A stretch of DNA of 64,000 nt from positions 4,915-68,914 of the IMG/VR virus record IMGVR_UViG_3300047510_002172. One strand, given 5' to 3'. A program made the translations under genes and the position numbers. This document shows positions 11,394 to 54,726 of the stretch, piece by piece (position 1 is the first letter of the stretch; each line of letters opens with the position of its first letter). The notes under the pieces are model-generated. The model ran no database searches. It was not told the DNA's origin and saw only the letters and a list, made by a program, of their open reading frames with translations. The stretch is from a virus.

Positions 11394-11394
11394 A

Positions 11395-15461: not shown

Positions 15462-15475
15462 TTGTATTAATATAA

Positions 15476-15859: not shown

Positions 15860-15860
15860 T

Positions 15861-26353: not shown

Positions 26354-27064
26354 TTAGTAAATTAATCCATCATTTCGTTTTCTATTACTATTATCAAACA
26401 TTTTTCTATTAGTAATAGTAGTGTTCTGTTCATGATCCGGCATATCATCATAAGCATACAGACCTTGGTGTGTTATGTTAAATATATCCGCTCTAACAAG
26501 GTAATCCGGAGCAGCGGTAATACCGTATTTAACACAATGTGCAATTAAGTTCTTAGCCATAGTAGGATCAACAGCATACGAATGAGTACGTAATAGAAAA
26601 TGGTAATTATTACCATCAGATCCATGTAAAGGTATTTTACCTAATGGCCAGCCTCGTTTAGCCCATTCTATACAGCCTAGATAAACTATCGAATTAAAGT
26701 GTTCGAATTGTTCGAACTTTTTAACCATAATAGCATCATGCTCTAATACTACTATTGGCTTATCTATTTTAGCACATTCTAACCAAAGACTAAAATGGCT
26801 TAAAGTACATGCAACTTCAGATTTAGTTTTATAATGATCTGTTACTTTAAGTATCTTAAAAATAGATTCATCTTTAAACCTTTCTGGAGTCTTTATACCC
26901 TCTCCGGTGCCATCGAAGGCATCCCAGACTTCATATTCCATGCCTACGTTTTTGCATGATTCTTGGCACCGAAGAGAGTACTTTTCTGACTTCTCGTTAC
27001 CTTTAATAGTAACAATATAAGCCTTTTCTACATTAGTTTGGTAAGAATAATTAAGATTTAGCAT
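26354..27064 (-). CDS. GT25-family glycosyltransferase
   Basis: 'AYIVTI...WDAFDG...EVACTLSHFSLW...IVVLEHDA...THSYAVDP..A...PD'. The likely start is ATG 27064 rather than the TTG at 27082. Confidence 0.8.
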   Translation of the reverse strand: MLNLNYSYQTNVEKAYIVTIKGNEKSEKYSLRCQESCKNVGMEYEVWDAFDGTGEGIKTPERFKDESIFKILKVTDHYKTKSEVACTLSHFSLWLECAKIDKPIVVLEHDAIMVKKFEQFEHFNSIVYLGCIEWAKRGWPLGKIPLHGSDGNNYHFLLRTHSYAVDPTMAKNLIAHCVKYGITAAPDYLVRADIFNITHQGLYAYDDMPDHEQNTTITNRKMFDNSNRKRNDGLIY

Positions 27065-28784
27065 CTTCTTCTCTAGCAGCAATTACAGCTTCCAAGTCCT
27101 TATGGTCATAACGACCAGCCTTATGTACTTGTATCAGTATTCTAGTTGCTAGAGCCACGTTGTTAAGGTGGTTAATAGAATAGTCCAGTTCTTCTTGAGT
27201 AATCTTACCCTGCTTCATTCTTGCTTCATAAGGAGCGGTATATTCAAACTGAATATCGCATACCTCAATATCAATATCATGTTCAAAACCGAGTAATGAT
27301 TCAGTATCTCCATTCTGTGCTTTCTGTATAAGATTTCTCTTATTAAACAGATGGAACATACCTACAGTAATAGCCCTCTTATGAGTGGGATCATCTAGAG
27401 CGGTATCACATCTCCAGTGCGGTACAACAATTTCCCAGATTGCGCCATTACCGCTGATTCTATACATTTCCTTTATAACTTTAATAAAGTCGTCTCCAGT
27501 AGTACCTAGATGCTCTAGAATATCTTTAGCTACAATGTGATCAAACTCGCTGTCTTTCCAGGGCCAAGGAAACTGCTCAAGGTCTACTACTTGATCTGGG
27601 TTTACTACTGCATACTTATCGACATTGAGGAAGTTCTTAAACTTCTTTAGACCACAACCAAGATTAATTCTCTTCTTTTCTCTGTCTTCATTAGGTAGAT
27701 CGATATGAGCAAGTTTATATTTTTCTTCTAGCTCTTTATAGATCTTCTGGAAAGGTTCATTCCACTTTTCAAAGATCTTCTGACGGAAAACTCTGACTGT
27801 CTTATAGTAGGGACTACTCTCACTATTCGGAGAGCCTGGTGTCCAGGTATGGTAAGGTAGTACTGGTACAAGTACCCATACTTCTTTACCCATAGCACCT
27901 GCAAGATGGGCAATACTCGTGCATGAAGTAATTACTAAGTCTAAGTTAGCAATTGCTCCCATAGTATCTTCCCACGAAATGAGAAGATGTTGTAGATCAG
28001 TAATACCTTCCGGTAGTTCAATAGTATTATGGTCTCTCTGTAAACTATAAACCTGTAGTTCTGGGTACTTTGCTAGGTTAGTAATGAAGTTTTCTGGAAA
28101 ACGCCGGAACTGTTGATGTTCAAACTTAGGATTACCAGCCCAACGTATACCGACTTTAATTTTATCTGACTTTATAATCGTCTTCCAGATGTCTACAGTT
28201 TCTGGTCTTGGGGTGAGATAAGGATCATTTGGAAACTTATCAAAAGTATGACCAGCGATCCAGCCAGCACTAAAACCAGGTATCCAGAAATCGTGTTGTA
28301 CAAGGTGGGTCTGGTTTCTTGCAATTACTTTATCTACTCCCTTAATACGAGAGAAAATAGATATCATTTCCGGTACAGTTGCAATATATACCTTTTCTGC
28401 CCCTAGTTCCTTATAGGTAGTAGCAAAACGAGAATGAATAATTTCATCTCCATACCCGCCTTCAAGGGAAATAATAATAGACTTACCCTTTAGAGTATGT
28501 GTTTCTGGGTTATAAATTGGAGCATCGGTTCTAAGAGGTGGAGAGCCATAAACATTCAAAAATCTTCCATGTTCTAGCAAGCGGCAACCGGCTTGGTAAT
28601 CTCCATCTTGAATAAGAAACCACCCTCTATTAAAGCAATGACGGAACCATATATCTTGAGTGGCTTTACCGTTCATATCTAACACTTTATCAGGGCCAAG
28701 CTTTTCTAATTTGTCTGAAATAGCCCGGGCTTCTTTGTTCTTACCTTCAATCTGAAGTTTTAACATTAAGTCAATGTCATGCAT
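27051..28784 (-). CDS. GT9-like (GT-B) glycosyltransferase fused to a class I SAM-dependent methyltransferase
   Basis: 'EGGYGDEI...RF', 'KVGIRWAGNP' and 'LDLVITSCTSIAHLAGAMGKEVWVL' (TPR/GT9-like). The C-terminus has 'INLGCG...NVD...PWPWKDSEFDHI...LEHL...DDPTH' (methyltransferase). Confidence 0.75.
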   Translation of the reverse strand: MHDIDLMLKLQIEGKNKEARAISDKLEKLGPDKVLDMNGKATQDIWFRHCFNRGWFLIQDGDYQAGCRLLEHGRFLNVYGSPPLRTDAPIYNPETHTLKGKSIIISLEGGYGDEIIHSRFATTYKELGAEKVYIATVPEMISIFSRIKGVDKVIARNQTHLVQHDFWIPGFSAGWIAGHTFDKFPNDPYLTPRPETVDIWKTIIKSDKIKVGIRWAGNPKFEHQQFRRFPENFITNLAKYPELQVYSLQRDHNTIELPEGITDLQHLLISWEDTMGAIANLDLVITSCTSIAHLAGAMGKEVWVLVPVLPYHTWTPGSPNSESSPYYKTVRVFRQKIFEKWNEPFQKIYKELEEKYKLAHIDLPNEDREKKRINLGCGLKKFKNFLNVDKYAVVNPDQVVDLEQFPWPWKDSEFDHIVAKDILEHLGTTGDDFIKVIKEMYRISGNGAIWEIVVPHWRCDTALDDPTHKRAITVGMFHLFNKRNLIQKAQNGDTESLLGFEHDIDIEVCDIQFEYTAPYEARMKQGKITQEELDYSINHLNNVALATRILIQVHKAGRYDHKDLEAVIAAREEDAKS

Positions 28785-28820: not shown

Positions 28821-31800
28821 TTATTTTTTAATATATGCTACTACCCCGCCTTGGTTTTTATTAGCACCGGCATCATCAATATCCGCGGTAACAGCAGTCG
28901 GGGTATAATCGTATTCTACTATGTTTTGTACTGGTAAACGAGTACCCCAATTATATAGTACATTAGCATTATTTATAAGATAATTCTGAGATGCTCCTGC
29001 AGATACTTTTTTCCAAGTACCACCTATACCTATTTGAGTAGGAGACGGGTAAGAAGTTATATTGGGTAGTTCAGTCAGCCTTTTCAAATAAGTAAATGAT
29101 AAATCCATATTATTACTTTGTGTATTTGCTGTGGTAAAAAACAACTGGTCGCTATACGGGTACGGACCAGGACCAATCATAAAGATTTTTCCATCAAAAC
29201 GTTTGGCAATAAAATTAGAATAATACAATTGAGTCCAACTACTTGTGCCAATTTGTACCGGAGAAGATGTAGGAATAGTACTCCCGTTCCCAAAAAAAGG
29301 TAAAAAAACACTACCACTAGAGCCGAAGCCTCCACCCCATTGAAATAAGGCCCCGTCAGAACGTATAGCGGAAGTAATATTTCTATTGACAAGTACTTGT
29401 GTCCAACTACTAGTACCAATTTGCACTGGAAATATTTTGTTAATAGTTGTCCCGTCTCCAAGTTGGCCGTCAGCATTGTTTCCCCAACCAAATAATGCAC
29501 CATCTGAGCGTATTACAAAATAATTTCCTATCGAGCTACTCCCGGCTCCAACACTAAGCTGAGTCCAACTACTTGTACCTATTTGTACCGGAGAAGACCT
29601 TAAAACAACGCCGTCCCCTAAACCACCAGGCGCGCTGCCCCATGTGAACAATGCGCCATCAGAGCGAATAGCTCCTATTTGCTGGTAGGTACCAGCAACT
29701 TGAATCCAACTACTTGTACCAATTTGTACCGGGGAAGACCTATTAATAGTGGTATTGTCTCCGATCGCTCCGTAAAAGACAGCGCTAAATAAGTTATTAG
29801 TACCCCAGCCAAATAAAGAACCGCCTAACCGTATTGCATGCATCGTACCTGAAGGCCCTCCTGAACAAAGAGATATCCAGCTACTTGTGCCAATTTGCAC
29901 CGGAGAAGACTTATTAGTAGTGGTATTATCTCCAAGGTTTCCTTGAAATCCAGAACCCCAGCCGAATAAAGCTCCGTCAGAACGTATAGCAAAACCACAA
30001 TCCCCAGTAGCAATTACTTGACTCCAGCTACTTGTGCCAATTTGTACCGGAGAAGACTTAAATACTGTAGTTCCGTCTCCAAGTATGCCGTTTTGGCCGC
30101 TACCCCAAGCAAATAATGCCCCATCAGAACGTATTGCTAAACCTGTGCCATATGTATTAGTATATTGTACTTGAGTCCAACTATATGTATTAGTTCTATT
30201 ATATCCCCAAGCATATGCTCTGTTATTTATATCTACCCCTAATCCATTGTCGTAACCAGCACTTGCAAAGTTCCATGAGTTACCATCTACAAGTACCGGG
30301 CTTGTAATTAAACTACCAGTTAGTACCGGGGAGTTTCTAGAAGTAGTTGTACCATCTCCTATACTTCCAGCGGAATTAAGTTCATTTATTCCCCAAGCAA
30401 ACATTGCCCCATCATTACGTATTGCGAAAGGTGTATTTCCTTTACCGTATATTTCTCTCCAAGGATTTGCACCTAATTGTACCGGGGAAGATCTTGCTAA
30501 AGCGGTTCCATCTCCAGCAAGACCAAGAACACCTAAAAAGTTACTACCCCAACCAAATAATAAATTAGCACTAGTGATGCCGTACGTATTTCCTGAGCCG
30601 GCGGCTAGCATATACCAACTACTAGAACCAATTTGAATCGGTGAAGATTTATTAATAGTAGTATTATCTCCTAATTGACCTCCGCTATTACCACCCCACG
30701 TAAATAATGATCCATTAGAGCGTAAGGCTACTGTATGGGTAGCTCCCGCATAAACTTGAGACCAACTACTGGTACCAATTTGTGTTGGAGATTTAACTAC
30801 TGCGTAAGAACCTAACTGTACCGGAGAACTCTTTGTAACTACAGTACCGTCACCGGTTGCACCCTGCGCGTTTTCACCTTGACCGAATAATACATAATTT
30901 AAACGTATTTCATGCGCACTACTAACTTGTATCCAGCTACTTGTACCGATCTGTACTGGAGATGATTTATCTGTTGTAGTACTATCTCCTATTACACCAG
31001 CTGGACTATTATTACGGCCCCAAGCAAATAGAGAACCACCTGAACGTATAGCGCGATTATGATTAAAAAGGGCTCCTGTTGCTATTTGAGTCCAGCTACT
31101 TGTACCGATTTGTACTGGAGATGAGGTAGAGGAAAGAGAACCTAATAAGACCGGAGAGCTTCTTGAAATTAATGAAAATGTCGGTTGCAAAAAACCGACA
31201 TTACTACTATTGGTACTACCATCTACCACATTACCACCGGCCCAATAAATTAAATTATCACTTCTTAATATTTGTGTGCTATTTACCCCTGTAATAACTT
31301 GTGTCCAACTGCTTGTACCGATTTGTACCGCAGAAGATCTAGACACTGTAGTATTATCTCCTAGAGCACCACGGCCGCCATTTCCCCATGTAAATAATGC
31401 TCCATCAGTACGAATAGCAGCAGCATTATTATAACCCAAAGATGCGGCTTTACTAGCAGTACTCCATGGACCGTTATTACCAATTTGTACTGGGGATGAA
31501 CGAGATATAGTTGTAGTAAGTCCGAGTACATTATTACCTGCGCCCCAGCTCCATAGAGTTCCATCGCTTCTACGGGCGTACACTTGAACACTAGCAAAAC
31601 CACCATAATCATTCAACCCCTGTACCTGGGTCCAACTACTAGTACCGACTTGTATTGGAGAAGAAGTGTTAACAGTACTATTTTGTCCGAGCTGACCACC
31701 AGTTTCGTTACCGGACGGGCCGTAATTGCTACCCCAGGTAAATAAAGCACCATCAATGCGTATTGCAGCCCCGGCAGATGGCCCTGCAAGTACTTGAGAC

Positions 31801-34800
31801 CAGCTACTTGTGCCGATCTGCACGGGAGAAAAATAACATGATATTAATCCAACCTGTACTGGAGAAGAGTTATACCCTGTGTCAATATTATTTCCAAAAA
31901 CTGATCTAGCTATACCTAATTGTATGTAGTTTAAATCTCCTAATGTAGCCCCACCGGCTTCTCTACCCCATGTAAATAACCCGCCATCTGTACGTATTGC
32001 CGTCCCGGTTATTTCATTACTGTTATCTCTGTAAGACGTGCCAAGTTGAGACCAGCTACTACTACCAATTTGTACCGGAGAAGATTTAGACACTGTAGTA
32101 TTATCACCAATATTATAATTTGCACCGGAGCCCCATGCAAATAATGCACCGTCAGAACGTATCCCGTAGCTAGTATTACCGGACCGTACTTGAGTCCAGC
32201 TACTAGTACCGATTTGTACTGGAGAAGATTTATCTACAGTAGTACCATCTCCTAATTGACCTAAACTATTAGACCCCCATGCAAATAAAGCCCCGTCGGA
32301 CCGAATAGCATGTCTTGTTGAAATAAATGTCCAGCTGCTAGTACCGATTTGTACTGGAGAGGACTTGTTAATAGTAGTACTATCTCCAAGCCATCCAAGC
32401 TGATTATACCCCCAAGCAAATAAGCTGCCGCCATTTCTTATTGCAAAAACAGTAGTATTACCGCCTCGTATTTGAGTCCAACTACTTGTACCTACTTGTA
32501 CCGGAGATGAACGAGCAGTAGTTGCATTACTACCTAATGCTCCGTTAGTTCCGGATCCCCAAGTAAATAAACCGCCATCAGTACGTATTGCAACTGTTGT
32601 ACCAGCCGGTCCATCGACCTGGGTCCAGCTGCTGGTGCCGATCTGTACTGGAGATGATCTGTTTATAACAGTATTATCTCCAAGAGCACCTGATCCATTG
32701 TTTCCCCAAGTAAATAATGCTCCATCAGTACGTATAGCGAAAGACTGATATTCTCCGGCGCCTACTTTTGTCCAACTACTTGTACCGATTTGTAGCGGAG
32801 AGTAATACTTACTAGAAATTCTATTGTCCCCCAAAACTCCGAAGCCGTTTATATCATATCCCCAAGTAAAAAGTAACCCATCAGAACGGACACCTACAGC
32901 ATGGCTAAAGCCAAACGCTACCTGAGCCCAGGATTTAGTATAATCTTTACGGTCATTCCAACTTTCATTAGTACCAAGTTGTCCAGAATTAAACATACCC
33001 CAACCAAACAATGCACCGTCTGAACGTATCGCTAAAGTACTGTATAAGTTAGTACTGACTTGAGTCCAGCTACTTGTGCCAATTTGTACCGGGGAAGAAC
33101 GGGTTAATTCAACATTATTCCCTGTAGCATATAATCCGGCTGATGTATATAGACCGTCAGGGGAGCCCCAGGCAAATAAGGCACCGTCTTCCCTTATAGC
33201 ATATGTTGCATAATACGCATTTACATTTTGCCACTTACTTGTTCCTATATAAACAGGTGAAGATCTACTAATAGTAGTATTATCTCCAAGTAAACCGGTG
33301 GAGTTGCTGCCCCATGCTACTAATGCATTAGACCACTTTTCTATAACAAAAGTAGACAATCCGGCTTTTGTTATATTTTCAGCTTTTAATACACCAATTA
33401 TTACCGGAGAAGATCTACTTATTGTAGTATTATCCCCTACTTGCCCGGCAAAATTGTAGCCCCAACCAAAAACTTGATAATCAAAATCTCTAATAGCAGC
33501 TGCATCTCTAGCGCCGCCATATGTAACCATTACCCAGCTACTTGTTCCAATTTGTATAGGAGAAGACGTACTGGTCTGGGTATTATTACCTAACGGTCCG
33601 TTAATGCCGTTACCCCACGTGAATAGAGCTCCATCATTTCTTATAGCCCCTTGTGTGATATCTCGAGTATTACCTACCCATTTCCAACTACGGGCATGTA
33701 AGTCTCTTGGAGATAGTACGACTTCAGATGTATTAGAACTTCCGAGTTCTCCTGAAGAACCAGAACGCCAAGTATATAATTTATTATCAGTTGATACTCC
33801 TAAATTAGCTAGTCCTCCTGCATGTACCTGAGACCAGCTTATATTAGTAATCTGGGTAGGTGTTCTATAGACTTTATCTAAACCAATTTGTACCGGAGAA
33901 GATCTTGGGGCTGTGGTACCATCACCGACTGGAAACGCTGGACCTCCATCATAACCGTTATATCCCCAATGGTATATCTTAGAATTTCTTATACCATAAG
34001 TAGTAGTATTTCCGCCTGTAGTAATTAAAGTCCAGCTATCTGTTCCTATCTGTACAGGGGAAGCATAAAATGGGTAGTACCCTATTGCAGTGGGGGTATT
34101 AGGAAGATTACCAGGTTGAAATTGTATACCGGCGTTATATGGATAAGGGCCACCCGCAGAAACAAGCGGCACAGTGGCATTCCATAGGGTTTGACTAGCG
34201 CCAGGTCCCCATCCATAAAGAGTCTTATCAGAACGTATTGCAATAATACCTACTTGTTCTATGATAGAACTAAAACCAAATAACGGGTAATTATGTACAA
34301 ACGACCAACTACTACCAATGCCAATTTGTACAGGGGAACTAGTGTCGTATCTTGAAGCATTACCTACATTATAAATAATGCTACTTGATATTGAATTGCG
34401 GCCCCAACCAAATAAAGCACCATCTACCCGTATAGCAAAATTAGCTAAACTACCCATAGTGGATATAAACGTCCAGCTACTTGTACCAATTTGTACCGGA
34501 GAAGATTTAGATACTGTAGTGCCATCTCCTAACTGACCACTAGAGTTAGCTCCCCAGGTAAATAACCTGCCATCAGATCTTATAGCGGCGTTACCACTGA
34601 CAATTGTCCAGCTACTTGTACCGATTTGTACCGGAGAAGATTTAATTACTGTTGTGCCATCTCCTAATTGACCGTCCTGATTAACTCCCCAGGTAAATAA
34701 GGCACCGTCAGACCTTATAGCAGAAAAAGCAGGAAGAGAATTACCTGTTCTGTACCCTGCTACTTGTATCCAGCTACTTGTACCAACCTGTACCGGGGAA

Positions 34801-37800
34801 GACCGAGACACAGTAGCATTTGACCCTAAAGCGCCTGAACTACCAGAACCCCAAGTAAATAAAGCACCGTCAGATCTAATGGCCGCGTATGTATTATTAA
34901 AAGTAGATGAAGTAAGCGCAACCTGTATCCAGCTACTTGTACCGATTTGTACCGGAGAAGATTTATTTACAGTAGTACTATCTCCTAGCTGACCGGAACT
35001 ATTAGACCCCCAAGTAAATAAGGCGCCGTCAGATCTTATAGCGGCACTATTATTTGGGCACGCGTCTAACTGAGTCCAGCTACTCGTACCTATTTGTATA
35101 GGGTATAATATACCGCTAAAATTCGCAAATTCAGGTATACCGCCACTCCCGGAGGAGCTGTTCCCTAAAAAGAATAGACCACCGTCATTTCTCAGGGCTA
35201 AAATCTGTCCAGTGCCAAAGCCATTGCTGCCGCCGCCCTTAATTTGCGTCCAAGATTGTCTATAGTCATTATAACTAATATTGTTAATACCTAAACCTCC
35301 AGGGTCAATATTACTAGTTTGATTAAGTCCCCAGCCAAACAAGGCACCATCAGATCGTATTGCAAAACTATTTCTACCAGCTCGTACCTGAGACCAACTA
35401 CTTGTACCTACCTGTACTGGGGAAGAACGAGGCTGAAAAGTACCATCCCCGAGAATGCCTGAAAATGCAATATTAGGCCCCCAGGTAAACAACCTTCCAT
35501 CTGAGCGGATTGCAGCGGTATAGCTGAGCATTGAAACTTGCGTCCAGCTACTTGTGCCTATTTGTACTGGGGATGATCTGTTTATAATAGTATTATCTCC
35601 AATACTACCAAAATTGTTATACCCCCAGGTAAATAACCCGCCATCAGATCTTATAGCCCCGGTTATACTAGTACCAATAGCTACTTGAGTCCAACTACTT
35701 GTACCTATTTGTACGGGTGAGGACTTATTTATAGTGGTATTGTCTCCTAACTGTCCAACATTATTATATCCCCATGTAAATAGACTACCACCAATTCTTA
35801 TAGCTATACTACTATCAAAACGAGAGCTAATTTGAGTCCAACTACTTGTACCTACCTGTACTGGTGAAGACCGTGACACAGTAGTACCTGCCCCTAGCTG
35901 ACCAAAATTATTTAATCCCCAAGTAAATAAAGCACCATCACTACGCATTGCGAGTGTATACCTATCACTCGCTACTACTTGAGACCAATTACTAGTACCG
36001 ATCTGCACCGGAGAGGATTTAGTAACGGTCGTACTATCACCTAACTGACCGTTAGCATTAATTCCCCAAGTATATAATTTACTATTCGAGTCTATTGCAG
36101 CAACGTGATTTGTTCCAGCACTTATCTGAGTCCAAGAAATATTATCTCCTGCAAAGAAGGTACCGTTACCCGGGCCTGTGTCTCCGTATGCGCCCCAAGT
36201 AAACAAGGATCCGTCTGAACGAATCGCATAGCTTCTTCCTGCAGGAGTGTTTACTGCAATACCAAGACCATATGTAACTTGTGTAAAACTAGTTGAACCG
36301 CCGATTAATACAGGAGACGATCTATTAATTGTCGTTCCGTCTCCAATTTGATAAAGATCATTTCTACCCCATGCAAATAAAGCGCCATCTTTACGAATTG
36401 CTATAGGTGTGTACGCGTAACCATAAATTTGACCCGGTGCCGCGATGGCCATCCCTGCAGCAAGTTGAATCCAGCTACTTGTACCAATCTGTACCGGGGA
36501 AGATTTTTTGACTGTAGTGTTATCGCCAAGCGCGCCAAAATCATTAAGACCCCAAGCAAACAAGGCTCCGTCTGAACGTATTGCGTATGTAGAAGCTCCT
36601 TGAGCGCATACAACTTGAGTCCAGCTACTTGTACCGACCTGTACCGGGGAATAGGTATTAATTGTACTGTTTATACCTAATTGCCCATCAAGATTAGGCC
36701 CGAAAATAAATAATGCACCATCAGTTCTTATGTCTGCACCATGCCAAGTATTTGAATATGTACCAACGGTAGACCAAGATTGGGCAGCATTAGTAATATT
36801 AATACTATTTTGTCCAAGCTCACCATAAAGATTGGATCCCCAAGCAAATAGCCCTCCATCCGACCGTATTGCTATAGTATGTGCAGTACCCTGTCCGACC
36901 TGAGTCCAGCTACTTGTACCCACTTGTACCGGAGAAGACCTATTTACATATGGATACACACTTTCTCCAAGTACTCCGTAATCTCCTTTACCCCAAGTAA
37001 ATAGTCTACCATCAGAACGTATTGCTGCAGCATTATTGTTACCAGCTGCAACGGCTGTCCAGCTACTTGAACCAAGTTGTACTGGAGAGGATCTATTTAA
37101 AGTACTATTATCTCCTGCAGCACCATATACATTATAACCCCAAGCAAACAGAGCACCGTCTGAACGTATAGCAACACTATGATCTGCGCCAGCTCCTACT
37201 TTGCTCCAGCTACTAGTACCAATTTGCACTGGAGAGGATTTACTTAGAATAGTATTATCTCCAAGACCGCCACCATTATCATTACGACCCCAAGCAAATA
37301 AAGCACCATCTACGCGTATTGCTAAAGCATGGAACTGACCAGCTGCGACCTGAGACCAGCTACTTGTACCAAGTTGTACCGGGGATGAACGAAAACCTAG
37401 TGCACCTATACCTAATTCCCCATAATTATTACCGGCACCCCAAGCTAATAATGCACCATCTGACCGTATACCAAAAGTACGGAACTGGGTAGCACTTGCA
37501 AAACCGTTCGCAACTTGGGTCCAAGATAAAGTACCATCGAGATTAACTGCGTTATTACCTATCTGTCCAAAAGAGTTATCTCCCCAACCGAATAAAGCAC
37601 CATCAGATCTAATTGCATGAGTTGTAACACTATTAGTACCAATTTGAATCCAGCTACTCGTACCTACCTGTACCGGGGAAGAATAATTAACAGAAAAAGA
37701 ATTTATATTTAATCCTAATTGGGCATTAGAGTTGCTACCCCAAGCGAATAAGGCACCATCTATACGTAATGCCATAGTATGAGAATAACCTGCTTCAACT

Positions 37801-40800
37801 TGAGACCAACTACTTGTACTAATTAGTACCGGAGATGATCTGTTAATAGAGGTATTATCTCCAAGCTGGCCGCTAGTATTTTGACCCCACGCATAAAGTT
37901 GGCCAATACTATTAATAGCTACAGTATGGTTACCACCGTTATGAACTTGACTCCAGCTACTTGTACCGATTTGTACCGGTCTACTCTTGTTTATAGTAGT
38001 TCCATCTCCTATTGTTCCTGTACTATTACCGCCCCATGCGTATAATTTACCATTACGAGATACTATAGCGGTACTATTAAAACCTGCACCTACAGAAACC
38101 GGGCTAACAAAATCTGTTACACCCGTAGCAAAGTTTTCGTTATTGCCCCATCCAAATAGGCTGCGATTAGTTGTAATACCTAGAGCAGCTCTATCTCCAG
38201 CATTGACAAGAATCCAGCTACTTGTACCAATCTGTACCGGGGAAGACCGGTTAATAGTGGTATTATCTCCTAATTGATAGGTATTATTAAGACCCCATGC
38301 AAATAATCCACCATCGGTACGTATAGCAGATGCATAATATTTACCAGCTGTTACAGCTGTCCAGCTACTTGTACCGATTTGAACCGGGCTAAGAGACACT
38401 GGTGGTCCAACTACTGCCCCTATTTGAGCGCCAATTTGTACCGGGGAACTTAGATTGACTGTAGTACTACTACCATTTCCTGCGTAAACAGAAATCCCCC
38501 AAAGAAATAAACTTCCACCAGAACGTATTGCAAAAACTCGATTGTTATTAGAGCTAATAAAACTCCAACTACTTGTACCAATTTGTACCGGAGAAGACCG
38601 GTTAATAGTGGTATTATCCCCTATACTAATCCCTGTTCCCCAACCAAACAAAGCACCATCAGTGCGTATCGCATGACTTGCTGTACTATTGAGCTGGTTG
38701 TACGGAAGTTGTGACCAGCTACTTGTACCTACTTGAACCGGGGAGGATCGAGATGTAGTTGCGCCTGAACCTAGCGTCCCGTTAGCTCCGTTTCCCCAAG
38801 TAAACAAAGCACCGTCAGAACGTATTGCCGCAACGCTATCAAAGTTGAATGTAACTTGAGACCAGCTACTTGTACCGACTTGTATCGGTGAAAAAAACGT
38901 TTTTGTTGCAGTGCCTATTTGCACTGGAGATGAAGCAGTAAAGACCTGCCCTGGGGCACCGGTATAATCCCATGGCGCAACAACTCGCCATGCCCAAATA
39001 GTATTATCTATTCTTAGCGCGCTAGGACTAGGATCTAATCTCACTTGAGTCCAGCTACTAGTACCTATTTGTACCGGAGAAGATTTCGATATAGTAGTCC
39101 CGTCCGCAAGTACTCCGGTAGTACCCGCACCCCAAGTAAACAATCTACCATCAGAACGTATTGCAGCTGTAGCTGAATAAAAAATACTTGATTGAACTTG
39201 AGACCAACTACTAGTACCTACTTGTACCGGGGAAGATCTGTTAAGGGTCGTACCGCTACCTAATGTGCCGTCGTTGTTACGGCCCCAGCTAAATAATCCA
39301 CCGTCATTTCTTATTGCAAACGTTCTCGTGGACCCGCAATTTATTTGAGACCAGCTACTTGTTCCGATTTGTACAGGAGAAGATTTATTTATAGTAGTAC
39401 TGTCTCCAATTTGACCGAAAGCATTACTCCCCCAAACAAATAAAGCTCCATCGGTTCGTATAGCTCCTACATGATTTTCTCCGCATGAAATTTGGGACCA
39501 ACTACTTGAACCGATTTGTATTAGATCATTCGCATATCTAGATATTGTTGTTCCGTCTCCAAGTACACCATTATCATTACGACCCCAAGCAAACAATGCC
39601 CCGTCGTTGCGTATTGCAAGTACTGGGTTAAATTGACCACTACTAATATAATCTACTTGAGCCCAACTACTATTATTTACCTGTAAAAGTACTCTTGAAC
39701 TTGCGCCAGGCCCACCAGTTGGCACCCCAAGTACCTCTCCGATAATTCCCCAAGCAAACAATGCCCCGTCTGTGCGTATTGCATAATATGTACTATTCTT
39801 GTTTACTCCTTTTGTCCAAGTATTTTCAACAAGAGCTGGCCAGTAGCCGCCCGAGCTTCCATCTCCAGCTAGCCCTAATACATAAAGTTTATTATTATTG
39901 TCTATATAACCATTTTGTCCACCGACTATTTGAGTCCAAGAAATACTGCCAAGAGGGTTAGCAGTAAAATTATTACCAAATAGCCCAGCTGGGGTAGAGT
40001 TTTGCCGGGCATCGGTTCCCCACATAAATAAAGCACCGTCGGTCCGTATACCAGCTACTAGCGTCCCGTCGGTATTAGGAGTAACTTGTATCCAACTACT
40101 TGTACCTACTTGAACAGGAGAAGATCTGTTAGACTCTCCGCCTGGAAAAATATTCTGTCCGAGCTGACCAGCATAATTCGCTCCCCAAGTAAATAGTGCG
40201 CCATCAGAGCGTATTGCATACGTATTAAAGCTATTAGCTCTAATTAAAATCCAACTATTAGTACCTATTTGTATCGGACTAGATTTATTTATAGTAGTAC
40301 CGTCTCCTAGTTGACCGAAAGTGTTAATTCCGCGTGTCCAGAGAGAATAGTCAGATTTAACAAACGTAACCCTACTAGTAGAAGAAGGATCAGTAGTTAT
40401 TTGTCGATAATTATTATTATCATACAAAGTTAAAATATTATTATATTCAATACCGGTATTTCTTGTTTGAACAGGGTCATTAACAAAACTATTATTAAGA
40501 ATATTATTTAAAGTACTAAACCCCCATAAAAATAACTTTTGATCGGAAGTTATTGCACCAATATAAGAAGTGGTTACATCAACGAAAGACCATGAAGACG
40601 TACTAAAGCCACTAAGACTGGTTACGGTACTATTATTACCTATCTGCCCGTAAAAATTATCCCCCCATGCAAACAAGCCGCCGTCTTTACGGATTGCATA
40701 CGAATTAGAATTACTAGCAGCGACTGCTACCCAGCTACTTGTACCAATTTGAACAGGAGATGAAACATATTTACGATACTCTGCATGCCCTGTACCCAGT

Positions 40801-41030
40801 TGACCGGTTTCGTTTCTTCCCCAAGCAAACAAAGCGCCGTCTGACCGTATTGCTACAACATGGCTTGTACCTTCTGCAACTGTTGACCAATAGCTAGTAC
40901 CGACTAAAACTGGAGAGCTTTTATATACAAGAGTACCGTCCCCTATTTGTCCGTACGTATTATCCCCGCCAAGGTACAGTTTAGATGCACCTTTGAGCGG
41001 AGAAGCCATTAGCCATCTTACTAGATTCAT
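28821..41030 (-). CDS. Giant RCC1/BLIP-II-like repeat protein (77 blades by manual count; 11 nested 7-bladed beta-propellers)
   Basis: 4069 aa of ~50-aa units 'W.QV..G..H..AIRSDGALF.WG.N..GQLGD.TT..KSSPVQIGTSS'. Confidence 0.9.
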   Translation of the reverse strand: MNLVRWLMASPLKGASKLYLGGDNTYGQIGDGTLVYKSSPVLVGTSYWSTVAEGTSHVVAIRSDGALFAWGRNETGQLGTGHAEYRKYVSSPVQIGTSSWVAVAASNSNSYAIRKDGGLFAWGDNFYGQIGNNSTVTSLSGFSTSSWSFVDVTTSYIGAITSDQKLFLWGFSTLNNILNNSFVNDPVQTRNTGIEYNNILTLYDNNNYRQITTDPSSTSRVTFVKSDYSLWTRGINTFGQLGDGTTINKSSPIQIGTNSWILIRANSFNTYAIRSDGALFTWGANYAGQLGQNIFPGGESNRSSPVQVGTSSWIQVTPNTDGTLVAGIRTDGALFMWGTDARQNSTPAGLFGNNFTANPLGSISWTQIVGGQNGYIDNNNKLYVLGLAGDGSSGGYWPALVENTWTKGVNKNSTYYAIRTDGALFAWGIIGEVLGVPTGGPGASSRVLLQVNNSSWAQVDYISSGQFNPVLAIRNDGALFAWGRNDNGVLGDGTTISRYANDLIQIGSSSWSQISCGENHVGAIRTDGALFVWGSNAFGQIGDSTTINKSSPVQIGTSSWSQINCGSTRTFAIRNDGGLFSWGRNNDGTLGSGTTLNRSSPVQVGTSSWSQVQSSIFYSATAAIRSDGRLFTWGAGTTGVLADGTTISKSSPVQIGTSSWTQVRLDPSPSALRIDNTIWAWRVVAPWDYTGAPGQVFTASSPVQIGTATKTFFSPIQVGTSSWSQVTFNFDSVAAIRSDGALFTWGNGANGTLGSGATTSRSSPVQVGTSSWSQLPYNQLNSTASHAIRTDGALFGWGTGISIGDNTTINRSSPVQIGTSSWSFISSNNNRVFAIRSGGSLFLWGISVYAGNGSSTTVNLSSPVQIGAQIGAVVGPPVSLSPVQIGTSSWTAVTAGKYYASAIRTDGGLFAWGLNNTYQLGDNTTINRSSPVQIGTSSWILVNAGDRAALGITTNRSLFGWGNNENFATGVTDFVSPVSVGAGFNSTAIVSRNGKLYAWGGNSTGTIGDGTTINKSRPVQIGTSSWSQVHNGGNHTVAINSIGQLYAWGQNTSGQLGDNTSINRSSPVLISTSSWSQVEAGYSHTMALRIDGALFAWGSNSNAQLGLNINSFSVNYSSPVQVGTSSWIQIGTNSVTTHAIRSDGALFGWGDNSFGQIGNNAVNLDGTLSWTQVANGFASATQFRTFGIRSDGALLAWGAGNNYGELGIGALGFRSSPVQLGTSSWSQVAAGQFHALAIRVDGALFAWGRNDNGGGLGDNTILSKSSPVQIGTSSWSKVGAGADHSVAIRSDGALFAWGYNVYGAAGDNSTLNRSSPVQLGSSSWTAVAAGNNNAAAIRSDGRLFTWGKGDYGVLGESVYPYVNRSSPVQVGTSSWTQVGQGTAHTIAIRSDGGLFAWGSNLYGELGQNSINITNAAQSWSTVGTYSNTWHGADIRTDGALFIFGPNLDGQLGINSTINTYSPVQVGTSSWTQVVCAQGASTYAIRSDGALFAWGLNDFGALGDNTTVKKSSPVQIGTSSWIQLAAGMAIAAPGQIYGYAYTPIAIRKDGALFAWGRNDLYQIGDGTTINRSSPVLIGGSTSFTQVTYGLGIAVNTPAGRSYAIRSDGSLFTWGAYGDTGPGNGTFFAGDNISWTQISAGTNHVAAIDSNSKLYTWGINANGQLGDSTTVTKSSPVQIGTSNWSQVVASDRYTLAMRSDGALFTWGLNNFGQLGAGTTVSRSSPVQVGTSSWTQISSRFDSSIAIRIGGSLFTWGYNNVGQLGDNTTINKSSPVQIGTSSWTQVAIGTSITGAIRSDGGLFTWGYNNFGSIGDNTIINRSSPVQIGTSSWTQVSMLSYTAAIRSDGRLFTWGPNIAFSGILGDGTFQPRSSPVQVGTSSWSQVRAGRNSFAIRSDGALFGWGLNQTSNIDPGGLGINNISYNDYRQSWTQIKGGGSNGFGTGQILALRNDGGLFFLGNSSSGSGGIPEFANFSGILYPIQIGTSSWTQLDACPNNSAAIRSDGALFTWGSNSSGQLGDSTTVNKSSPVQIGTSSWIQVALTSSTFNNTYAAIRSDGALFTWGSGSSGALGSNATVSRSSPVQVGTSSWIQVAGYRTGNSLPAFSAIRSDGALFTWGVNQDGQLGDGTTVIKSSPVQIGTSSWTIVSGNAAIRSDGRLFTWGANSSGQLGDGTTVSKSSPVQIGTSSWTFISTMGSLANFAIRVDGALFGWGRNSISSSIIYNVGNASRYDTSSPVQIGIGSSWSFVHNYPLFGFSSIIEQVGIIAIRSDKTLYGWGPGASQTLWNATVPLVSAGGPYPYNAGIQFQPGNLPNTPTAIGYYPFYASPVQIGTDSWTLITTGGNTTTYGIRNSKIYHWGYNGYDGGPAFPVGDGTTAPRSSPVQIGLDKVYRTPTQITNISWSQVHAGGLANLGVSTDNKLYTWRSGSSGELGSSNTSEVVLSPRDLHARSWKWVGNTRDITQGAIRNDGALFTWGNGINGPLGNNTQTSTSSPIQIGTSSWVMVTYGGARDAAAIRDFDYQVFGWGYNFAGQVGDNTTISRSSPVIIGVLKAENITKAGLSTFVIEKWSNALVAWGSNSTGLLGDNTTISRSSPVYIGTSKWQNVNAYYATYAIREDGALFAWGSPDGLYTSAGLYATGNNVELTRSSPVQIGTSSWTQVSTNLYSTLAIRSDGALFGWGMFNSGQLGTNESWNDRKDYTKSWAQVAFGFSHAVGVRSDGLLFTWGYDINGFGVLGDNRISSKYYSPLQIGTSSWTKVGAGEYQSFAIRTDGALFTWGNNGSGALGDNTVINRSSPVQIGTSSWTQVDGPAGTTVAIRTDGGLFTWGSGTNGALGSNATTARSSPVQVGTSSWTQIRGGNTTVFAIRNGGSLFAWGYNQLGWLGDSTTINKSSPVQIGTSSWTFISTRHAIRSDGALFAWGSNSLGQLGDGTTVDKSSPVQIGTSSWTQVRSGNTSYGIRSDGALFAWGSGANYNIGDNTTVSKSSPVQIGSSSWSQLGTSYRDNSNEITGTAIRTDGGLFTWGREAGGATLGDLNYIQLGIARSVFGNNIDTGYNSSPVQVGLISCYFSPVQIGTSSWSQVLAGPSAGAAIRIDGALFTWGSNYGPSGNETGGQLGQNSTVNTSSPIQVGTSSWTQVQGLNDYGGFASVQVYARRSDGTLWSWGAGNNVLGLTTTISRSSPVQIGNNGPWSTASKAASLGYNNAAAIRTDGALFTWGNGGRGALGDNTTVSRSSAVQIGTSSWTQVITGVNSTQILRSDNLIYWAGGNVVDGSTNSSNVGFLQPTFSLISRSSPVLLGSLSSTSSPVQIGTSSWTQIATGALFNHNRAIRSGGSLFAWGRNNSPAGVIGDSTTTDKSSPVQIGTSSWIQVSSAHEIRLNYVLFGQGENAQGATGDGTVVTKSSPVQLGSYAVVKSPTQIGTSSWSQVYAGATHTVALRSNGSLFTWGGNSGGQLGDNTTINKSSPIQIGSSSWYMLAAGSGNTYGITSANLLFGWGSNFLGVLGLAGDGTALARSSPVQLGANPWREIYGKGNTPFAIRNDGAMFAWGINELNSAGSIGDGTTTSRNSPVLTGSLITSPVLVDGNSWNFASAGYDNGLGVDINNRAYAWGYNRTNTYSWTQVQYTNTYGTGLAIRSDGALFAWGSGQNGILGDGTTVFKSSPVQIGTSSWSQVIATGDCGFAIRSDGALFGWGSGFQGNLGDNTTTNKSSPVQIGTSSWISLCSGGPSGTMHAIRLGGSLFGWGTNNLFSAVFYGAIGDNTTINRSSPVQIGTSSWIQVAGTYQQIGAIRSDGALFTWGSAPGGLGDGVVLRSSPVQIGTSSWTQLSVGAGSSSIGNYFVIRSDGALFGWGNNADGQLGDGTTINKIFPVQIGTSSWTQVLVNRNITSAIRSDGALFQWGGGFGSSGSVFLPFFGNGSTIPTSSPVQIGTSSWTQLYYSNFIAKRFDGKIFMIGPGPYPYSDQLFFTTANTQSNNMDLSFTYLKRLTELPNITSYPSPTQIGIGGTWKKVSAGASQNYLINNANVLYNWGTRLPVQNIVEYDYTPTAVTADIDDAGANKNQGGVVAYIKK

Positions 41031-41626
41031 ATTACCGGTGCTTCAGTAGTGGTAGTACTTGTAGTAGTACTAGTTGTGGTTGTTGGTTCGGGTTGTACGT
41101 ACACTGGCCAAATTATATTAAATGGGTCTTCTTGTAGAGTTATATCTGCTAGAGCAGACATATGAGCATCTAATGCTTTTAGTGTGTCTAGTTGAGGTAG
41201 AGATAATCTTTCGTGTCTATAATATCTATTATATCTCCATTCAAAATCTTTCATAAACTGATCTCTATTACTTCTTACTATAGACCATTGAAATTGTTTA
41301 TTTTCGTATTCTAGTACTTCTGGTGGTAAAGGTGCTGCCCCTCCACCACCTCCACCACCAGGGCTTGGTACAGGCGTAGGTAGATTTTCTATAACTGGCT
41401 CTTCATAGACTACCCCGTCAATTACGGTATAACTGTAATCAACTATTTTTTGTGTGGCCGGATTAAAATAATACGGATTTTTTACTACTGTTTTCCACCC
41501 TAAAGCATCTAACTCAGCCGGATAATTTAACAAATTAGGTAGATTACTAATATTTTTCCAATTAGTAGGTAAAATGTCGCATGTTTCTTTAACTGTATTA
41601 TCTTCTACGTAAGCAAAATTTGCCAT
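41027..41626 (-). CDS. Tail-fibre assembly chaperone-like protein
   Basis: 'WSIVRSNRDQFMKDFEW...ALADITLQEDPFNIIWP' is a tail assembly chaperone-like motif. Thr-rich C-terminus; ATGA overlap with the RCC1 gene. Confidence 0.7.
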   Translation of the reverse strand: MANFAYVEDNTVKETCDILPTNWKNISNLPNLLNYPAELDALGWKTVVKNPYYFNPATQKIVDYSYTVIDGVVYEEPVIENLPTPVPSPGGGGGGGAAPLPPEVLEYENKQFQWSIVRSNRDQFMKDFEWRYNRYYRHERLSLPQLDTLKALDAHMSALADITLQEDPFNIIWPVYVQPEPTTTTSTTTSTTTTEAPVI

Positions 41627-41637
41627 GGTACTATAGA

Positions 41638-42657
41638 TTATTTACTATCGGCCATAGATAATAAAGCTCTCCAATCAGCACCATTATCATTAGTTGAAAA
41701 CACTATTACATCTGTGCCAGAAGTAGTTAATGTTGAAGCAACTCCACCAGGCCATCTAGTAGTTGTGGGCCAGATCATAGTATAAGAACCACCATTAGTT
41801 AGTTCCAATATAAATCCACCAGCATATCCAGCTGAAGGAGAGTTACTAATAGTCCAAGTTACGTTACCGGTAGCAGTTGCTGAAAAATAATTTGCCGTGC
41901 TATAGTTTATGTCTGTGGTGCCTGTAACACTACCTAAACTTATTGCGCTTACATTTGGACCAGATGTGCCTCCACCCCCGGCTCCGGGCGCGCCGCTAAA
42001 ACCGCTAAATCCACTAAAGCCAGATGTACCTATACCGCTGTACCCAGAGTACCCACTCGTGCCACTTACTCCTGAATAGCCACTATAACCAGAATAACCA
42101 CTTCTACCAGAATATCCAGAGTAGCCAGAAAATCCGCTTATACCAGAGTATCCAGAATAGCCGCTTATACCAGAGTAACCAGAATATCCAGAAGTACCTA
42201 TACCAGAATAGCCACTATAACCACTTCTTCCGCTGTATCCGCTATAGCCTGAAGTACCGGCGCCGCCACTTGCGTATATTGTTCCAGTAGCAGAAATATT
42301 ACCAACAACAGTTAAAGCTTCATTTGGACTACTAGTGCCAACTCCGACTTTAGTACCAGATACTACTAACGCATTAGTACCATACGTACCCATTACAACA
42401 CTGTCATTACTGTTTACTTCTAATATAGGTAAACCAGTAATATCTCCTACAGACATAACAACACCGGTAAGAGCATCTGTTATACTGAATAAGGAACCAG
42501 CTGAACCTATAAATGCTACTTGACCTTCAGGCAGTACCTGTAAGGTTATAGATGATGCAGAAGGATTTAACGCGCTTAACCCAGCTGATAAACCTACAAA
42601 CCGAATACTCGGATTGCTTGTTGTATTGCGATTAGGTGTTATGATCAAGTCTGGCAT
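41638..42657 (-). CDS. Short fibre protein with a GYS stalk and a C-terminal adaptor domain
   Basis: 'KVGVGTSSPNEALTVVGNISA' fibre motif, ~90 aa of GYS, and C-terminal 'GGFILELTNGG...WP...WPGG...LT..G.DV..F.T.D.G..W'. Confidence 0.7.
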   Translation of the reverse strand: MPDLIITPNRNTTSNPSIRFVGLSAGLSALNPSASSITLQVLPEGQVAFIGSAGSLFSITDALTGVVMSVGDITGLPILEVNSNDSVVMGTYGTNALVVSGTKVGVGTSSPNEALTVVGNISATGTIYASGGAGTSGYSGYSGRSGYSGYSGIGTSGYSGYSGISGYSGYSGISGFSGYSGYSGRSGYSGYSGYSGVSGTSGYSGYSGIGTSGFSGFSGFSGAPGAGGGGTSGPNVSAISLGSVTGTTDINYSTANYFSATATGNVTWTISNSPSAGYAGGFILELTNGGSYTMIWPTTTRWPGGVASTLTTSGTDVIVFSTNDNGADWRALLSMADSK

Positions 42658-42677
42658 CTATTATTATTTATTAAAAA

Positions 42678-43451
42678 CTATAACCCGTACCTTCCTTTTG
42701 TCGCGTTAAAGTTTTGAAGAACTTCAGTTGCAGCTAATGCGCGGCTGTACATTCTTACTGTTGAAACATTACAATCTGCATTCATTGTATACGTCTGGCC
42801 GTTATTACTTGCAATTGCTATTCTTAAATTATTAGTCGTGCCTATACCAGCGGCATTCGGTGCAGTAAAACTATTAGTTCCTATTGGTATCCCATTTATA
42901 AAAGTAGTGAGAGTGTTACTACTTCTTACTACTACAACATGAAACCATGTTCCAACAATAATGTTAGCGTTTGACGAACCTATCGACGCACCCGGAGCTG
43001 AAACTATACTCGAGGTCCCGCTCCATATATCGTAGGTTAAATTAGTAGCACTATAATAAAACATTGCGTGGTAACCACGGTACACTAATAATGCACTCCA
43101 AGCTTCTGTAGCATCGTAGTTAGTAGGATTCGCGTTGTTTATTCTTGCCCATACCTCCGTAGTATGATTACTATACAAATAAGTAGAAACAGCTAAGTTA
43201 CCGGAAACAGTTATATCTGCGTATGCACCTGCCTCAGAGGCGGGCGGCATAGATCTTGTAAATTTTAAAGATCTACTAGAAGCTTCAAAAGAGTAAGTTG
43301 CAGGAAAAGGGGCGGTTAAATTAAAATTTCTTCCATTTCTACTTATATCAGTCCAAGTAGCCCCAGTTCCCGGGTAACTTTTAGTATTACCTGCATCTAA
43401 ACAGAGTACTAAACCATCTTCTATAATATTAGGGCCACCAAAAACACTCAT
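42678..43451 (-). CDS. LamG/concanavalin-A-like lectin domain protein, paralog 3
   Basis: 'GLVLCLDAGNTKSYPGTG...WFHVVVVR...FING...MYSRAL...QNFNATKGRYGL'. Confidence 0.8.
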   Translation of the reverse strand: MSVFGGPNIIEDGLVLCLDAGNTKSYPGTGATWTDISRNGRNFNLTAPFPATYSFEASSRSLKFTRSMPPASEAGAYADITVSGNLAVSTYLYSNHTTEVWARINNANPTNYDATEAWSALLVYRGYHAMFYYSATNLTYDIWSGTSSIVSAPGASIGSSNANIIVGTWFHVVVVRSSNTLTTFINGIPIGTNSFTAPNAAGIGTTNNLRIAIASNNGQTYTMNADCNVSTVRMYSRALAATEVLQNFNATKGRYGL

Positions 43452-44116
43452 AAACCAAATCTTCCTTTCGTTGCGTTAAAGTTTTGAAGTATTTCTGATT
43501 CAGTAATACCTCTATTATATAGTAAGGCTGTAGAAATATAACCAAACGGTTGACTACCTCCAGCTTCATTACCCCAAGCGTTATGGGTAGTACCATTTGC
43601 TGTATATGCTACAGTTCCTTTTGCAGCAAGACCATTAATATAGAGATTAGTACTACCTGTACCTGTATTAGTAACAGTATACATAGTCCATTTATTAGCT
43701 AGACCTAAAGTGCTTACATCTAAATTATATGGTACAAAATTTCCCCCGTTATTATCATAATAACCTAACCGGTTAGTACCGGTTTCAACTAGTACAGGGT
43801 GATCGTCAGGAGTCGTTCTCCAGAGCGTTCTCCAAGTAGTAGTACTAGATATTACTCTAGCCCAAGTAAGCATGGTATAGGAAGTACCAAATGTATATGA
43901 AGAACCGCTTGGATAACAGCGGCCAGTGGTACTACAATTAAAACAATTTATCCCATCTACAGTAGTAAAGGATGCTGATACTAAAGTATGATTATATTTA
44001 TTTAAAGTAAGATCTGTAAATACCGTGCCCGTGCCGGAATAGCTTTTAGTATTACTTGCATCTAAACAAAGCACCAAACCATTCGTGACTATCTTTGGAC
44101 CGTTGAAATAGCTCAT
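43448..44116 (-). CDS. LamG/concanavalin-A-like lectin domain protein, paralog 2
   Basis: Same terminal motifs as the other two paralogs; ATGA overlap. Confidence 0.8.
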   Translation of the reverse strand: MSYFNGPKIVTNGLVLCLDASNTKSYSGTGTVFTDLTLNKYNHTLVSASFTTVDGINCFNCSTTGRCYPSGSSYTFGTSYTMLTWARVISSTTTWRTLWRTTPDDHPVLVETGTNRLGYYDNNGGNFVPYNLDVSTLGLANKWTMYTVTNTGTGSTNLYINGLAAKGTVAYTANGTTHNAWGNEAGGSQPFGYISTALLYNRGITESEILQNFNATKGRFGL

Positions 44117-44838
44117 AGGTTGTATCTTCCTTTCGTTGCGTTAAAGTTTTGGAGTACTTCTGTAGCAGCTAATGCGCGGTTGTATATTTGAATTAAGGAA
44201 ACACTGCCGGCAAAATATCTTTCTGAAGAAACGACGAGACTAAAGCCTCTTCCAACATTTAAATTATTCATTGTTCCAATAAATCCCGTTGGGCTTCCAG
44301 CCGAACCTCTAGATATGCCAGTTGGCATTCCATTGTAATAAGTAGTTGAACTATTTGGGACGTAAGTAATTGCAGCGCAATGCCAAGTATTTACTGCGAG
44401 ACCACTCGCGACCACAACGTGCCCATAAAGGGAATTATTATTGTTAGTTATGTTTGAATATGCCCATCCAAGCTCACCGAGAGCGTTGAATTCTAATCTC
44501 GGGCCTATATTTCCTGTAGTCGCATTATATGCATAATTGCAATCTAAAACGTTTGCATAATTTTTAATTGAAGTAGGATAAAACCATACAATTACAGTAA
44601 ATGAAGAAAAAGACCCTGATAATCCTCCAGAGACTGAATATTGATTTGTTCCGTTGAAAACAATACTTCCTCTACTAGCGTTACTATATGTTGGGCCGCC
44701 GGTTAATGTACCGTTATACCCATTCCTACTTAAATCAGTCCAAGTAGTACCAGTACCAGGATAGCTTTTAGGATTACCTGCGTCGAGGCAAAGTACTAAA
44801 CCATTAGTTACTATGCGTGGCGCGTAAAATGTAGACAT
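44113..44838 (-). CDS. LamG/concanavalin-A-like lectin domain protein, paralog 1
   Basis: Same terminal motifs; 'WHCAAITY...YYNG...FAGSVSLIQIYNRAL'. Confidence 0.8.
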   Translation of the reverse strand: MSTFYAPRIVTNGLVLCLDAGNPKSYPGTGTTWTDLSRNGYNGTLTGGPTYSNASRGSIVFNGTNQYSVSGGLSGSFSSFTVIVWFYPTSIKNYANVLDCNYAYNATTGNIGPRLEFNALGELGWAYSNITNNNNSLYGHVVVASGLAVNTWHCAAITYVPNSSTTYYNGMPTGISRGSAGSPTGFIGTMNNLNVGRGFSLVVSSERYFAGSVSLIQIYNRALAATEVLQNFNATKGRYNL

Positions 44839-44839
44839 A

Positions 44840-50632: not shown

Positions 50633-50644
50633 CTTATATACTTA

Positions 50645-51769: not shown

Positions 51770-51828
51770 TATAAAAATATTTACAGTTATTGTTACTTTT
51801 AAATAGAAGTAAGCTAAATATAATTACA

Positions 51829-52875: not shown

Positions 52876-52896
52876 GATAAATTGACATAGAACTTT

Positions 52897-52925
52897 AAAG
52901 CTCGTTAGCAATAACGAGCTTTTTT
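52897..52925 (+). terminator. Intrinsic terminator between convergent genes
   Basis: AAAGCTCGTTA-GCAA-TAACGAGCTTT hairpin with a GNRA loop, followed by Ts. Confidence 0.85.
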
Positions 52926-52929
52926 ATTG

Positions 52930-54711: not shown

Positions 54712-54726
54712 ATTAGATACTTACCG

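Follow-up and report, generated by a model that had tools for sequence, protein, structure and literature searches.

The window analysed here is a 64,000-nucleotide stretch of viral DNA, positions 4,915 to 68,914 of the IMG/VR record IMGVR_UViG_3300047510_002172, which is a linear contig of 68,914 nt from an uncultured phage (estimated completeness 30). On its minus strand a single open reading frame (ORF) at 28821-41030 encodes a protein of 4069 residues, here named P0001, and we consider it likely that the 77 RCC1 blades of this protein fold as a tree of eleven seven-bladed propellers rather than as a string. The Pfam content of P0001 consists of RCC1-type repeats alone: PF00415 (RCC1) scores 1071.3 bits over 39 stretches against a cut-off of 21.7, PF25390 scores 1533.9 bits over 17 stretches against a cut-off of 150, and all 49 RCC1-type Pfam matches found genome-wide lie within the P0001 frame.

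A blade hidden Markov model (HMM) of 49 columns was built from 26 canonical repeats, in which the order of motifs is W.QV, AIRSDGALF.WG, GQLG and then SSPVQIG. This HMM finds 84 matches in P0001, comprising 76 with a blade core, seven that are strand-only and one N-terminal part-blade. The 76 core blades, together with one blade split between the N- and C-terminal part-blades at the two chain ends, give 77, or 11 x 7, the number proposed in a first-pass annotation made from the DNA letters. That annotation had arrived at 77 by splitting at W.QV starts; a plain W..V split of P0001 yields just 68 starts, because some blades have no W.

Two kinds of irregular junction interrupt the canonical order, and each occurs nine times. 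At an open, the blade lacks the following SSPVQIG and a new W.QV comes directly after it, whereas at a closing an extra strand stands after a complete SSPVQIG, with a short linker between the two. The HMM itself calls eight of the nine opens and six of the nine closings. All nine opens fall in one equivalent loop, after the GQLG hairpin, and the linker between the last strand of the insert and the strand of its host is 4-13 residues long in the seven closings at which neither strand is in doubt. These closing linkers mostly carry an aromatic residue (for example TATKTFF, LDKVYRT, LISCYF and SYAVVK), and their lengths are kept, with different sequences, in the ortholog P0004 described below. 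The four double motifs quoted in the first-pass annotation as closings are all present in the translation, at residues 701-720, 861-886, 2377-2394 and 3402-3420.

When opens and closings are matched as brackets on a hand-checked token string of P0001, the levels hold 7, 7, 7, 7, 7, 14, 7, 7, 7 and 7 blades, and in the split units the blades on either side of the inserts (4+3, 5+2, 6+1, 4+3 and 2+2+1+2) add up to seven each time. The tree that results from this parse has three branches, root > A > B, root > C > D > (E > F > G, and I > H), and root > J. The 14-blade level is best read as two tandem rings, E and I, sharing one loop, with 4+3 and 3+4 blades around F and H, respectively. The border between them would lie near residues 2546/2547, at an atypical junction kept in all three orthologs. 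These counts agree with the first-pass proposal of seven blades in each insert and a 14-blade E+I block, all levels being 7 or 14, and the unit borders lie within a few codons of those first proposed.

The chain begins with root segment 1 (residues 1-146, window positions 40593-41030; all segments are on the minus strand), which holds the N-terminal part-blade, blade R1 and the open blade R2. Unit A starts in this opening (residues 147-364, 39939-40592; A1-A4, with A4 open), is interrupted by the seven contiguous blades of unit B (residues 365-707, 38910-39938) and is completed by a closing strand and A5-A7 (residues 708-868, 38427-38909), the whole unit spanning residues 147-868. Root segment 2 follows (residues 869-974, 38109-38426; closing strand, R3 and the open R4). 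The first part of unit C (residues 975-1169, 37524-38108; C1-C4, with C4 open) leads into those of unit D (residues 1170-1418, 36777-37523; D1-D5, D5 open), unit E (residues 1419-1632, 36135-36776; E1-E4, E4 open) and unit F (residues 1633-1926, 35253-36134; F1-F6, F6 open), and the seven contiguous blades of unit G (residues 1927-2322, 34065-35252) form the deepest level. The chain then returns through the second part of F (residues 2323-2383, 33882-34064; closing strand, F7 and a last strand closing F1) and of E (residues 2384-2546, 33393-33881; closing strand and E5-E7). Next come the first part of unit I (residues 2547-2700, 32931-33392; I1-I3, I3 open), the seven contiguous blades of unit H inside it (residues 2701-3061, 31848-32930) and the second part of I (residues 3062-3298, 31137-31847; closing strand and I4-I7), followed by the second parts of D (residues 3299-3408, 30807-31136; closing strand, D6-D7) and C (residues 3409-3572, 30315-30806; closing strand, C5-C7). 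With their inserts, F spans residues 1633-2383, E+I 1419-3298, D 1170-3408 and C 975-3572. Root segment 3 (residues 3573-3617, 30180-30314) consists of a closing strand and the open R5, unit J (residues 3618-3990, 29061-30179) of seven blades inside the root, the seventh degenerate, and root segment 4 (residues 3991-4069, 28824-29060) of a closing strand, R6 and, at the C-terminal end, the part-blade that joins up with the N-terminus. The segments rest on the HMM matches, apart from the second part of F, which rests on an AlphaFold2 model, and root segments 3 and 4, which rest on the translation and a co-fold of the root. Bracket counts also bear on B and H, the AlphaFold2 model on the first part of F and on G, the orthologs on root segment 2 and the second part of E, and the co-fold on root segments 1 and 2.

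The parse was evaluated by a subset test in which nine opens are chosen among all 16 truncated blades, giving 11,440 choices. Exactly one of these makes every level a multiple of 7, and it is the same as the hand parse. When the 16 candidates and nine closings were laid out at random positions, a perfect subset appeared in 0 of 250 and 0 of 5000 layouts, and among 224,529 valid random bracketings there was no perfect parse. A fully automatic stack parse (adapted blade HMM plus a position-specific scoring matrix for the strands) was too noisy to use, giving sizes of 4, 4, 3, 2, 7, 14, 2 and 7 for P0001 with nine levels left open.

Two orthologs carry the same bracket pattern: P0003 (4138 residues, 78% identity, at 3662-16078 of the related viral contig L001) and P0004 (3894 residues, 50% identity). 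In both, opens and closings stand at the same places as in P0001 although the linker sequences have drifted, and nine of the ten levels fit in each. Residues 1-19, bar residue 2, are identical across all three orthologs (residues 1-15 are encoded at window positions 40986-41030, where the gene starts). Units G and H of P0001 are collinear when compared blade by blade, the mean identity falling from 0.53 at rotation 0 to 0.44 at other rotations and reaching 0.78 for the pair G5-H5, which lends modest support to duplication of a whole propeller. The best rotations of C-D and D-F align their open blades, with differences of 0.04-0.07, and the blade-by-blade identities are too weak a signal to give the order of duplications.

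The bracket size was also counted in a family sample of 237 other RCC1 proteins from two homology searches, tokenised with the same blade HMM. The simple HMM-coordinate tokens used solely for this statistic on other proteins mis-call degenerate blades; their innermost brackets are one of 5 blades in P0001, none in P0003, and of 6 and 3 blades in P0004. In the sample, innermost brackets of the form open, n full blades, close number 170 and occur in 91 of the 237 proteins, and their size peaks sharply at n=7 (67 of 170), compared with 17 brackets of six blades and 2 of eight. In 1000 shuffles of the tokens within proteins, n=7 came up 7.05 times on average and never more than 15 times. Among 960 cases of the control pattern open, n, open, 24 have n=7, and the pattern close, n, open, seen 132 times, shows no peak at n=6 (6 cases), so that an alternation of tandem closures fails to explain the peak at seven. 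After clean inserts were collapsed, a second round again found brackets of seven blades in 7 of 14 cases. At least one clean insert is present in 50 of the 237 proteins, and many relatives of ~1100 residues are regular 21-blade arrays with no brackets, from which it follows that nested and tandem forms both exist in this family.

Another homolog, P0005 (5840 residues, 34% identity), was counted by eye: it has 13 opens, one per five blades, then a seven-blade core, and after the core ~20 closings, mostly one per two blades (5+2=7). Judged from its sequence, this layout would be a far deeper nest than that of P0001, and the surplus closings suggest either that brackets begin in another gene or that the protein has been cut.

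Structural evidence for nesting comes from an AlphaFold2 model of residues 1633-2383, unit F with G kept inside, made from an 81-row alignment of mostly non-orthologous RCC1 proteins. Its mean predicted local distance difference test score (pLDDT) is 82.8, 434 of its 751 residues score 90 or more, and low confidence is limited to the open linker and a long loop of G7. DSSP assigns each blade four strands, in the order A (SSPVQIG), B (W.QV), C and D; there are 55 strands in all, and the last (744-749) comes after F7. In a fold search, solved single propellers match over the whole length of the model, 1-751: UVR8 (8gqe_B, chain residues 17-377; Z 50.2, root-mean-square deviation (rmsd) 1.4 Å over 336 residues), HERC2 (7q40_C; Z 42.9, 1.7 Å over 319) and RCC1 (1a12_A; Z 37.9, 2.3 Å over 321). 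BLIP-II (1jtd_B) matches with Z 25.5 and 2.4 Å over 238 residues, and HERC2, RPGR, RCC2, RCC1 and BLIP-II all have ranges running from model residues 1-19 to 717-751. Seven-blade propellers of other kinds (lectins, WD40) instead cover ~291 to 644-692, which is G; the PLL-type propeller lectin 6gxs_A, for example, aligns to G over 282 residues with Z 19.0 and an rmsd of 4.6 Å, a match at fold level only. No propeller spans model residues 1-352 or 353-751. With single propellers aligning over 1-751 and others over G, the one reading that we see is that blades F1-F6 and F7 form one ring in the model, to which the two F parts supply 294 and 61 residues, and G, lying between them, forms another.

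Unit F of the model is thus a seven-blade ring that superposes on solved RCC1-like domains (RLDs; 336 of 386 residues aligned with UVR8), and the model shows a propeller fully inserted within another of the same chain. Structure prediction of a split unit had been put forward in the first-pass annotation as a way to check nesting; as run here on F with G kept in place, it has F1-F6 and F7 matching one solved propeller with G separate. The GH74 xyloglucanases have two seven-blade propellers per chain that are consecutive in sequence, and one of them, 6p2m_A, superposes poorly on the F+G model (Z 17.2, rmsd 17.6 Å over 461 residues), showing that the arrangement of F and G differs from a tandem double propeller.

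For the outermost level, the four root fragments (residues 1-146, 869-974, 3573-3617 and 3985-4069), which are up to 2598 residues apart in the chain, were co-folded with ESMFold2, using custom three-row alignments. The score was 0.79 in each of three runs, compared with 0.02 for the best of three controls; 58 of 80 solved complexes attained this mark in calibration, as did 2 of 110 mismatched pairs. At least 68% of the contacts are common to the runs, and the partner pLDDT is at least 72. In the co-fold the C-terminal root piece lies between blade R5 and the N-terminal piece and contacts both, the latter through residues 6-9, 14 and 16, in agreement with the earlier suggestion that the N- and C-termini together complete the seventh root blade.

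Several points weigh against a tree that extends over the whole chain. The three-dimensional models cover two of the ten brackets and both are predictions; AlphaFold2 applied to residues 1419-2546 (E with F and G inside, three-row alignment) gave a mean pLDDT of 29.2 and no usable model. In the F+G model the predicted template modelling score is 0.59, the closing strand of G, which falls within model residues 645-687 (pLDDT 25-41), is absent from the model, and the split alignment is deduced from the 336 residues at 1.4 Å, the fold search giving first and last aligned residues only. The setup of the root co-fold (own alignments, four chains) is unlike that of its calibration, its pass may be driven by likeness to solved RCC1 propellers, and co-folding might assemble any set of RCC1 blades into a ring. 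As for the tokens, one open (blade 18, residues 939-974) and three closings (residues 2390-2398, 3576-3585 and 3996-4005) are readings by eye in P0001, and seven further truncated HMM matches were taken as ordinary blades with a degenerate strand; blade 18 is ambiguous in P0001 and HMM-called as open in P0004. The 14-blade level has no visible inner bracket, none of the three brackets in a third collapsing round of the family sample holds seven blades, and each ortholog has one odd unit, B of P0003 (residues 369-773) with eight blades and J of P0004 (residues 3601-3815) with four only, these being either real departures from seven or errors of repeat assembly.

Some of these points would also fit a partly nested protein, in which the innermost units B, G, H and J are truly inserted and the outer ones (root, C, D and E/I) stay open or are completed by another copy of the chain in an oligomer. 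Models exist for F+G and the root, the root co-fold is blind to whether closure is within or between chains, P0005 has ~20 closings for 13 opens, and the orthologs contain the units of eight and four blades just described. We regard this alternative as unlikely, because opens and closings balance within the P0001 chain, every outer level sums to 7 or 14, and the root pieces co-fold with a score far above that of the best control. Judging from the predicted models, nesting is probably real for F+G and for the root, and C, D, E, I, A, B, H and J would fold in the same way as these modelled units; the whole eleven-propeller tree as parsed is, in our estimate, fairly likely. The nesting six levels deep and branched that was proposed at first pass is supported by the bracket counts, the orthologs, the family peak and the F+G and root models, the deeper levels being an extrapolation.

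The gene for P0001 belongs to a long same-strand run of fibre genes, and its start ATG overlaps the stop codon of a 199-residue ORF upstream. Besides the collagen-like giants and the lectin-like and glycosyltransferase genes described below, its neighbours encode a head-closure protein and the large terminase; the flanking ORFs match tail-fibre PHROGs, Collagen and Laminin_G_3, which places the gene within a tail-fibre module. Two large ORFs, of 2267 residues at 16207-23010 and 1930 residues at 44840-50632 (both minus strand), have many stretches that match collagen-like tail-fibre PHROGs. Just upstream of the propeller gene, at 42678-44838 (minus strand), are three consecutive ORFs of 257, 222 and 241 residues, each with a Laminin_G_3 lectin-like domain. 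Directly downstream, within the fibre operon, lies a protein with a family-25 glycosyltransferase domain (26354-27082, minus strand), and a 577-residue ORF at 27051-28784 (minus strand), also downstream in the operon, has a weak match to a methyltransferase PHROG. The contig L001 (70,120 nt) has the same gene order around its propeller gene. A megablast search of window positions 41000-60000 against a phage collection gave no match.

This gene context suggests that P0001 would be a host-binding structure of the tail-fibre module on the virion surface, its eleven rigid faces acting as a multivalent adhesin. The same fold could serve an internal or DNA-organising protein instead. A part in ordering packaged DNA has been suggested as a possibility for the RCC1-domain proteins of the jumbo coliphage phAPEC6 (PMC7247149), and the PHROGs label for the P0001 family, 'regulator of chromosome condensation' in the class DNA, RNA and nucleotide metabolism, is of the same kind, a label by name only. 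Both the phAPEC6 suggestion and the PHROGs class rest on the eukaryotic RCC1 name, however, and the P0001 gene sits among collagen-like fibre and lectin-like genes; PF13385 (Laminin_G_3) is present in the precomputed domain lists of P0001 homologs. An internal or DNA-organising role is accordingly improbable in our view.

A plain string of eleven propellers, each of seven consecutive blades, with decayed or spare linker strands wherever an open or double junction occurs, is likewise improbable. In its favour, the family does include tandem arrays (the ~1100-residue relatives, with 21 regular blades and no irregular junction) and AlphaFold-type models tend to ring-close any seven blades, but a string offers no reason for blade counts around the inserts to sum to seven or for the peak at seven between open and close in 237 other proteins, would leave the blade after each open junction one strand short and each closing with one to spare, and does not fit the F+G model, in which RCC1-like matches span 1-751 and G ~291-690 and none corresponds to either half.

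In the nested tree, each structural blade has four strands, with SSPVQIG in strand A, W.QV in strand B and AIRSDGALF.WG across C and D, followed by a surface loop in which the GQLG hairpin leads on to the next blade. Nine times, a whole propeller would occupy the loop between this hairpin and the next strand A. Each insert would begin with a strand B and end with a strand A, the latter completing the insert's own first blade; its termini would then lie side by side, an arrangement that allows a propeller to be inserted into a loop. After a short linker the host chain would resume with its own strand A, and such a placement of inserts would account for both the open blades and the double motifs at closings. 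The seventh blade of the root would be assembled from the two ends of the chain. That all nine insertions are in the same loop suggests that whole propellers were copied again and again into a single permissive site, and this is the likely origin of the protein.

Normally the domains of a multi-domain protein follow one another along the chain, and insertions of one domain into another number one or two at most. UVR8, RCC1, the RLDs of HERC1 and HERC2, RPGR, RCC2 and BLIP-II share the blade motif and seven-blade fold of P0001, and this likeness implies no function connected with Ran, UV-B or beta-lactamase. All 26 solved relatives in sequence are single propellers of 370-536 residues, in contrast to the eleven in one chain proposed here, ten of which would lie within loops of others. 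The nearest topological precedent is Trm734, a solved protein with three WD40 propellers in which brackets already nest: BPB, a whole propeller, interrupts BPA just ahead of its final strand, and the chain begins with a strand of the third propeller, BPC (PMC6847430). The same text names DDB1 as another three-propeller protein (PMC6847430). Trm734 has its insertion inside the last blade (c7/d7), and neither branching nor six-level recursion appears in its description there (PMC6847430), whereas P0001 has RCC1 blades, eleven propellers, and insertions in the inter-blade loop, which runs from strand D to the next strand A.

Large RCC1 proteins have been reported elsewhere. Giant proteins consisting of RCC1 repeats only occur in Oscillospiraceae (bioRxiv 10.1101/2023.11.21.568195), and phAPEC6 has eleven RCC1-like genes (PMC7247149); for neither is nesting described in the text available, and their function is at most speculated upon. 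The word 'nested' has no occurrence in the accessible text of the Oscillospiraceae preprint (bioRxiv 10.1101/2023.11.21.568195), and a term search of the accessible text of a survey of repetitive propellers likewise returned none (PMC9218822). A search of one literature library, covering main texts, found no description of nested propellers in RCC1 proteins, with variants of the phrase 'nested propeller' giving unrelated papers only. The insertion of one propeller into another is itself known; the new part would be the recursive and branched extreme.

We are inclined to extend this arrangement, with somewhat more reserve than for P0001 itself, to a recursive rule followed by the phage RCC1 giants, in which a seven-blade propeller is copied repeatedly into one surface loop to give a self-similar branched tree. 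The product would be a multivalent adhesin resembling a dendrimer but made of a single chain, of a topology class not described before, with relatives apparently nested far deeper or having brackets that run even across neighbouring genes. The grammar of the arrangement (open, seven blades, close) is searchable in the thousands of metagenomic RCC1 giants. If true, the nested tree would be a new way of building large, rigid, branched objects from one gene, and a natural template for tree-shaped scaffolds in protein design. It would also pose a hard folding problem, the outer propellers closing only after thousands of residues of inserts, and would show how uncultured large phages present many binding faces on one fibre protein.

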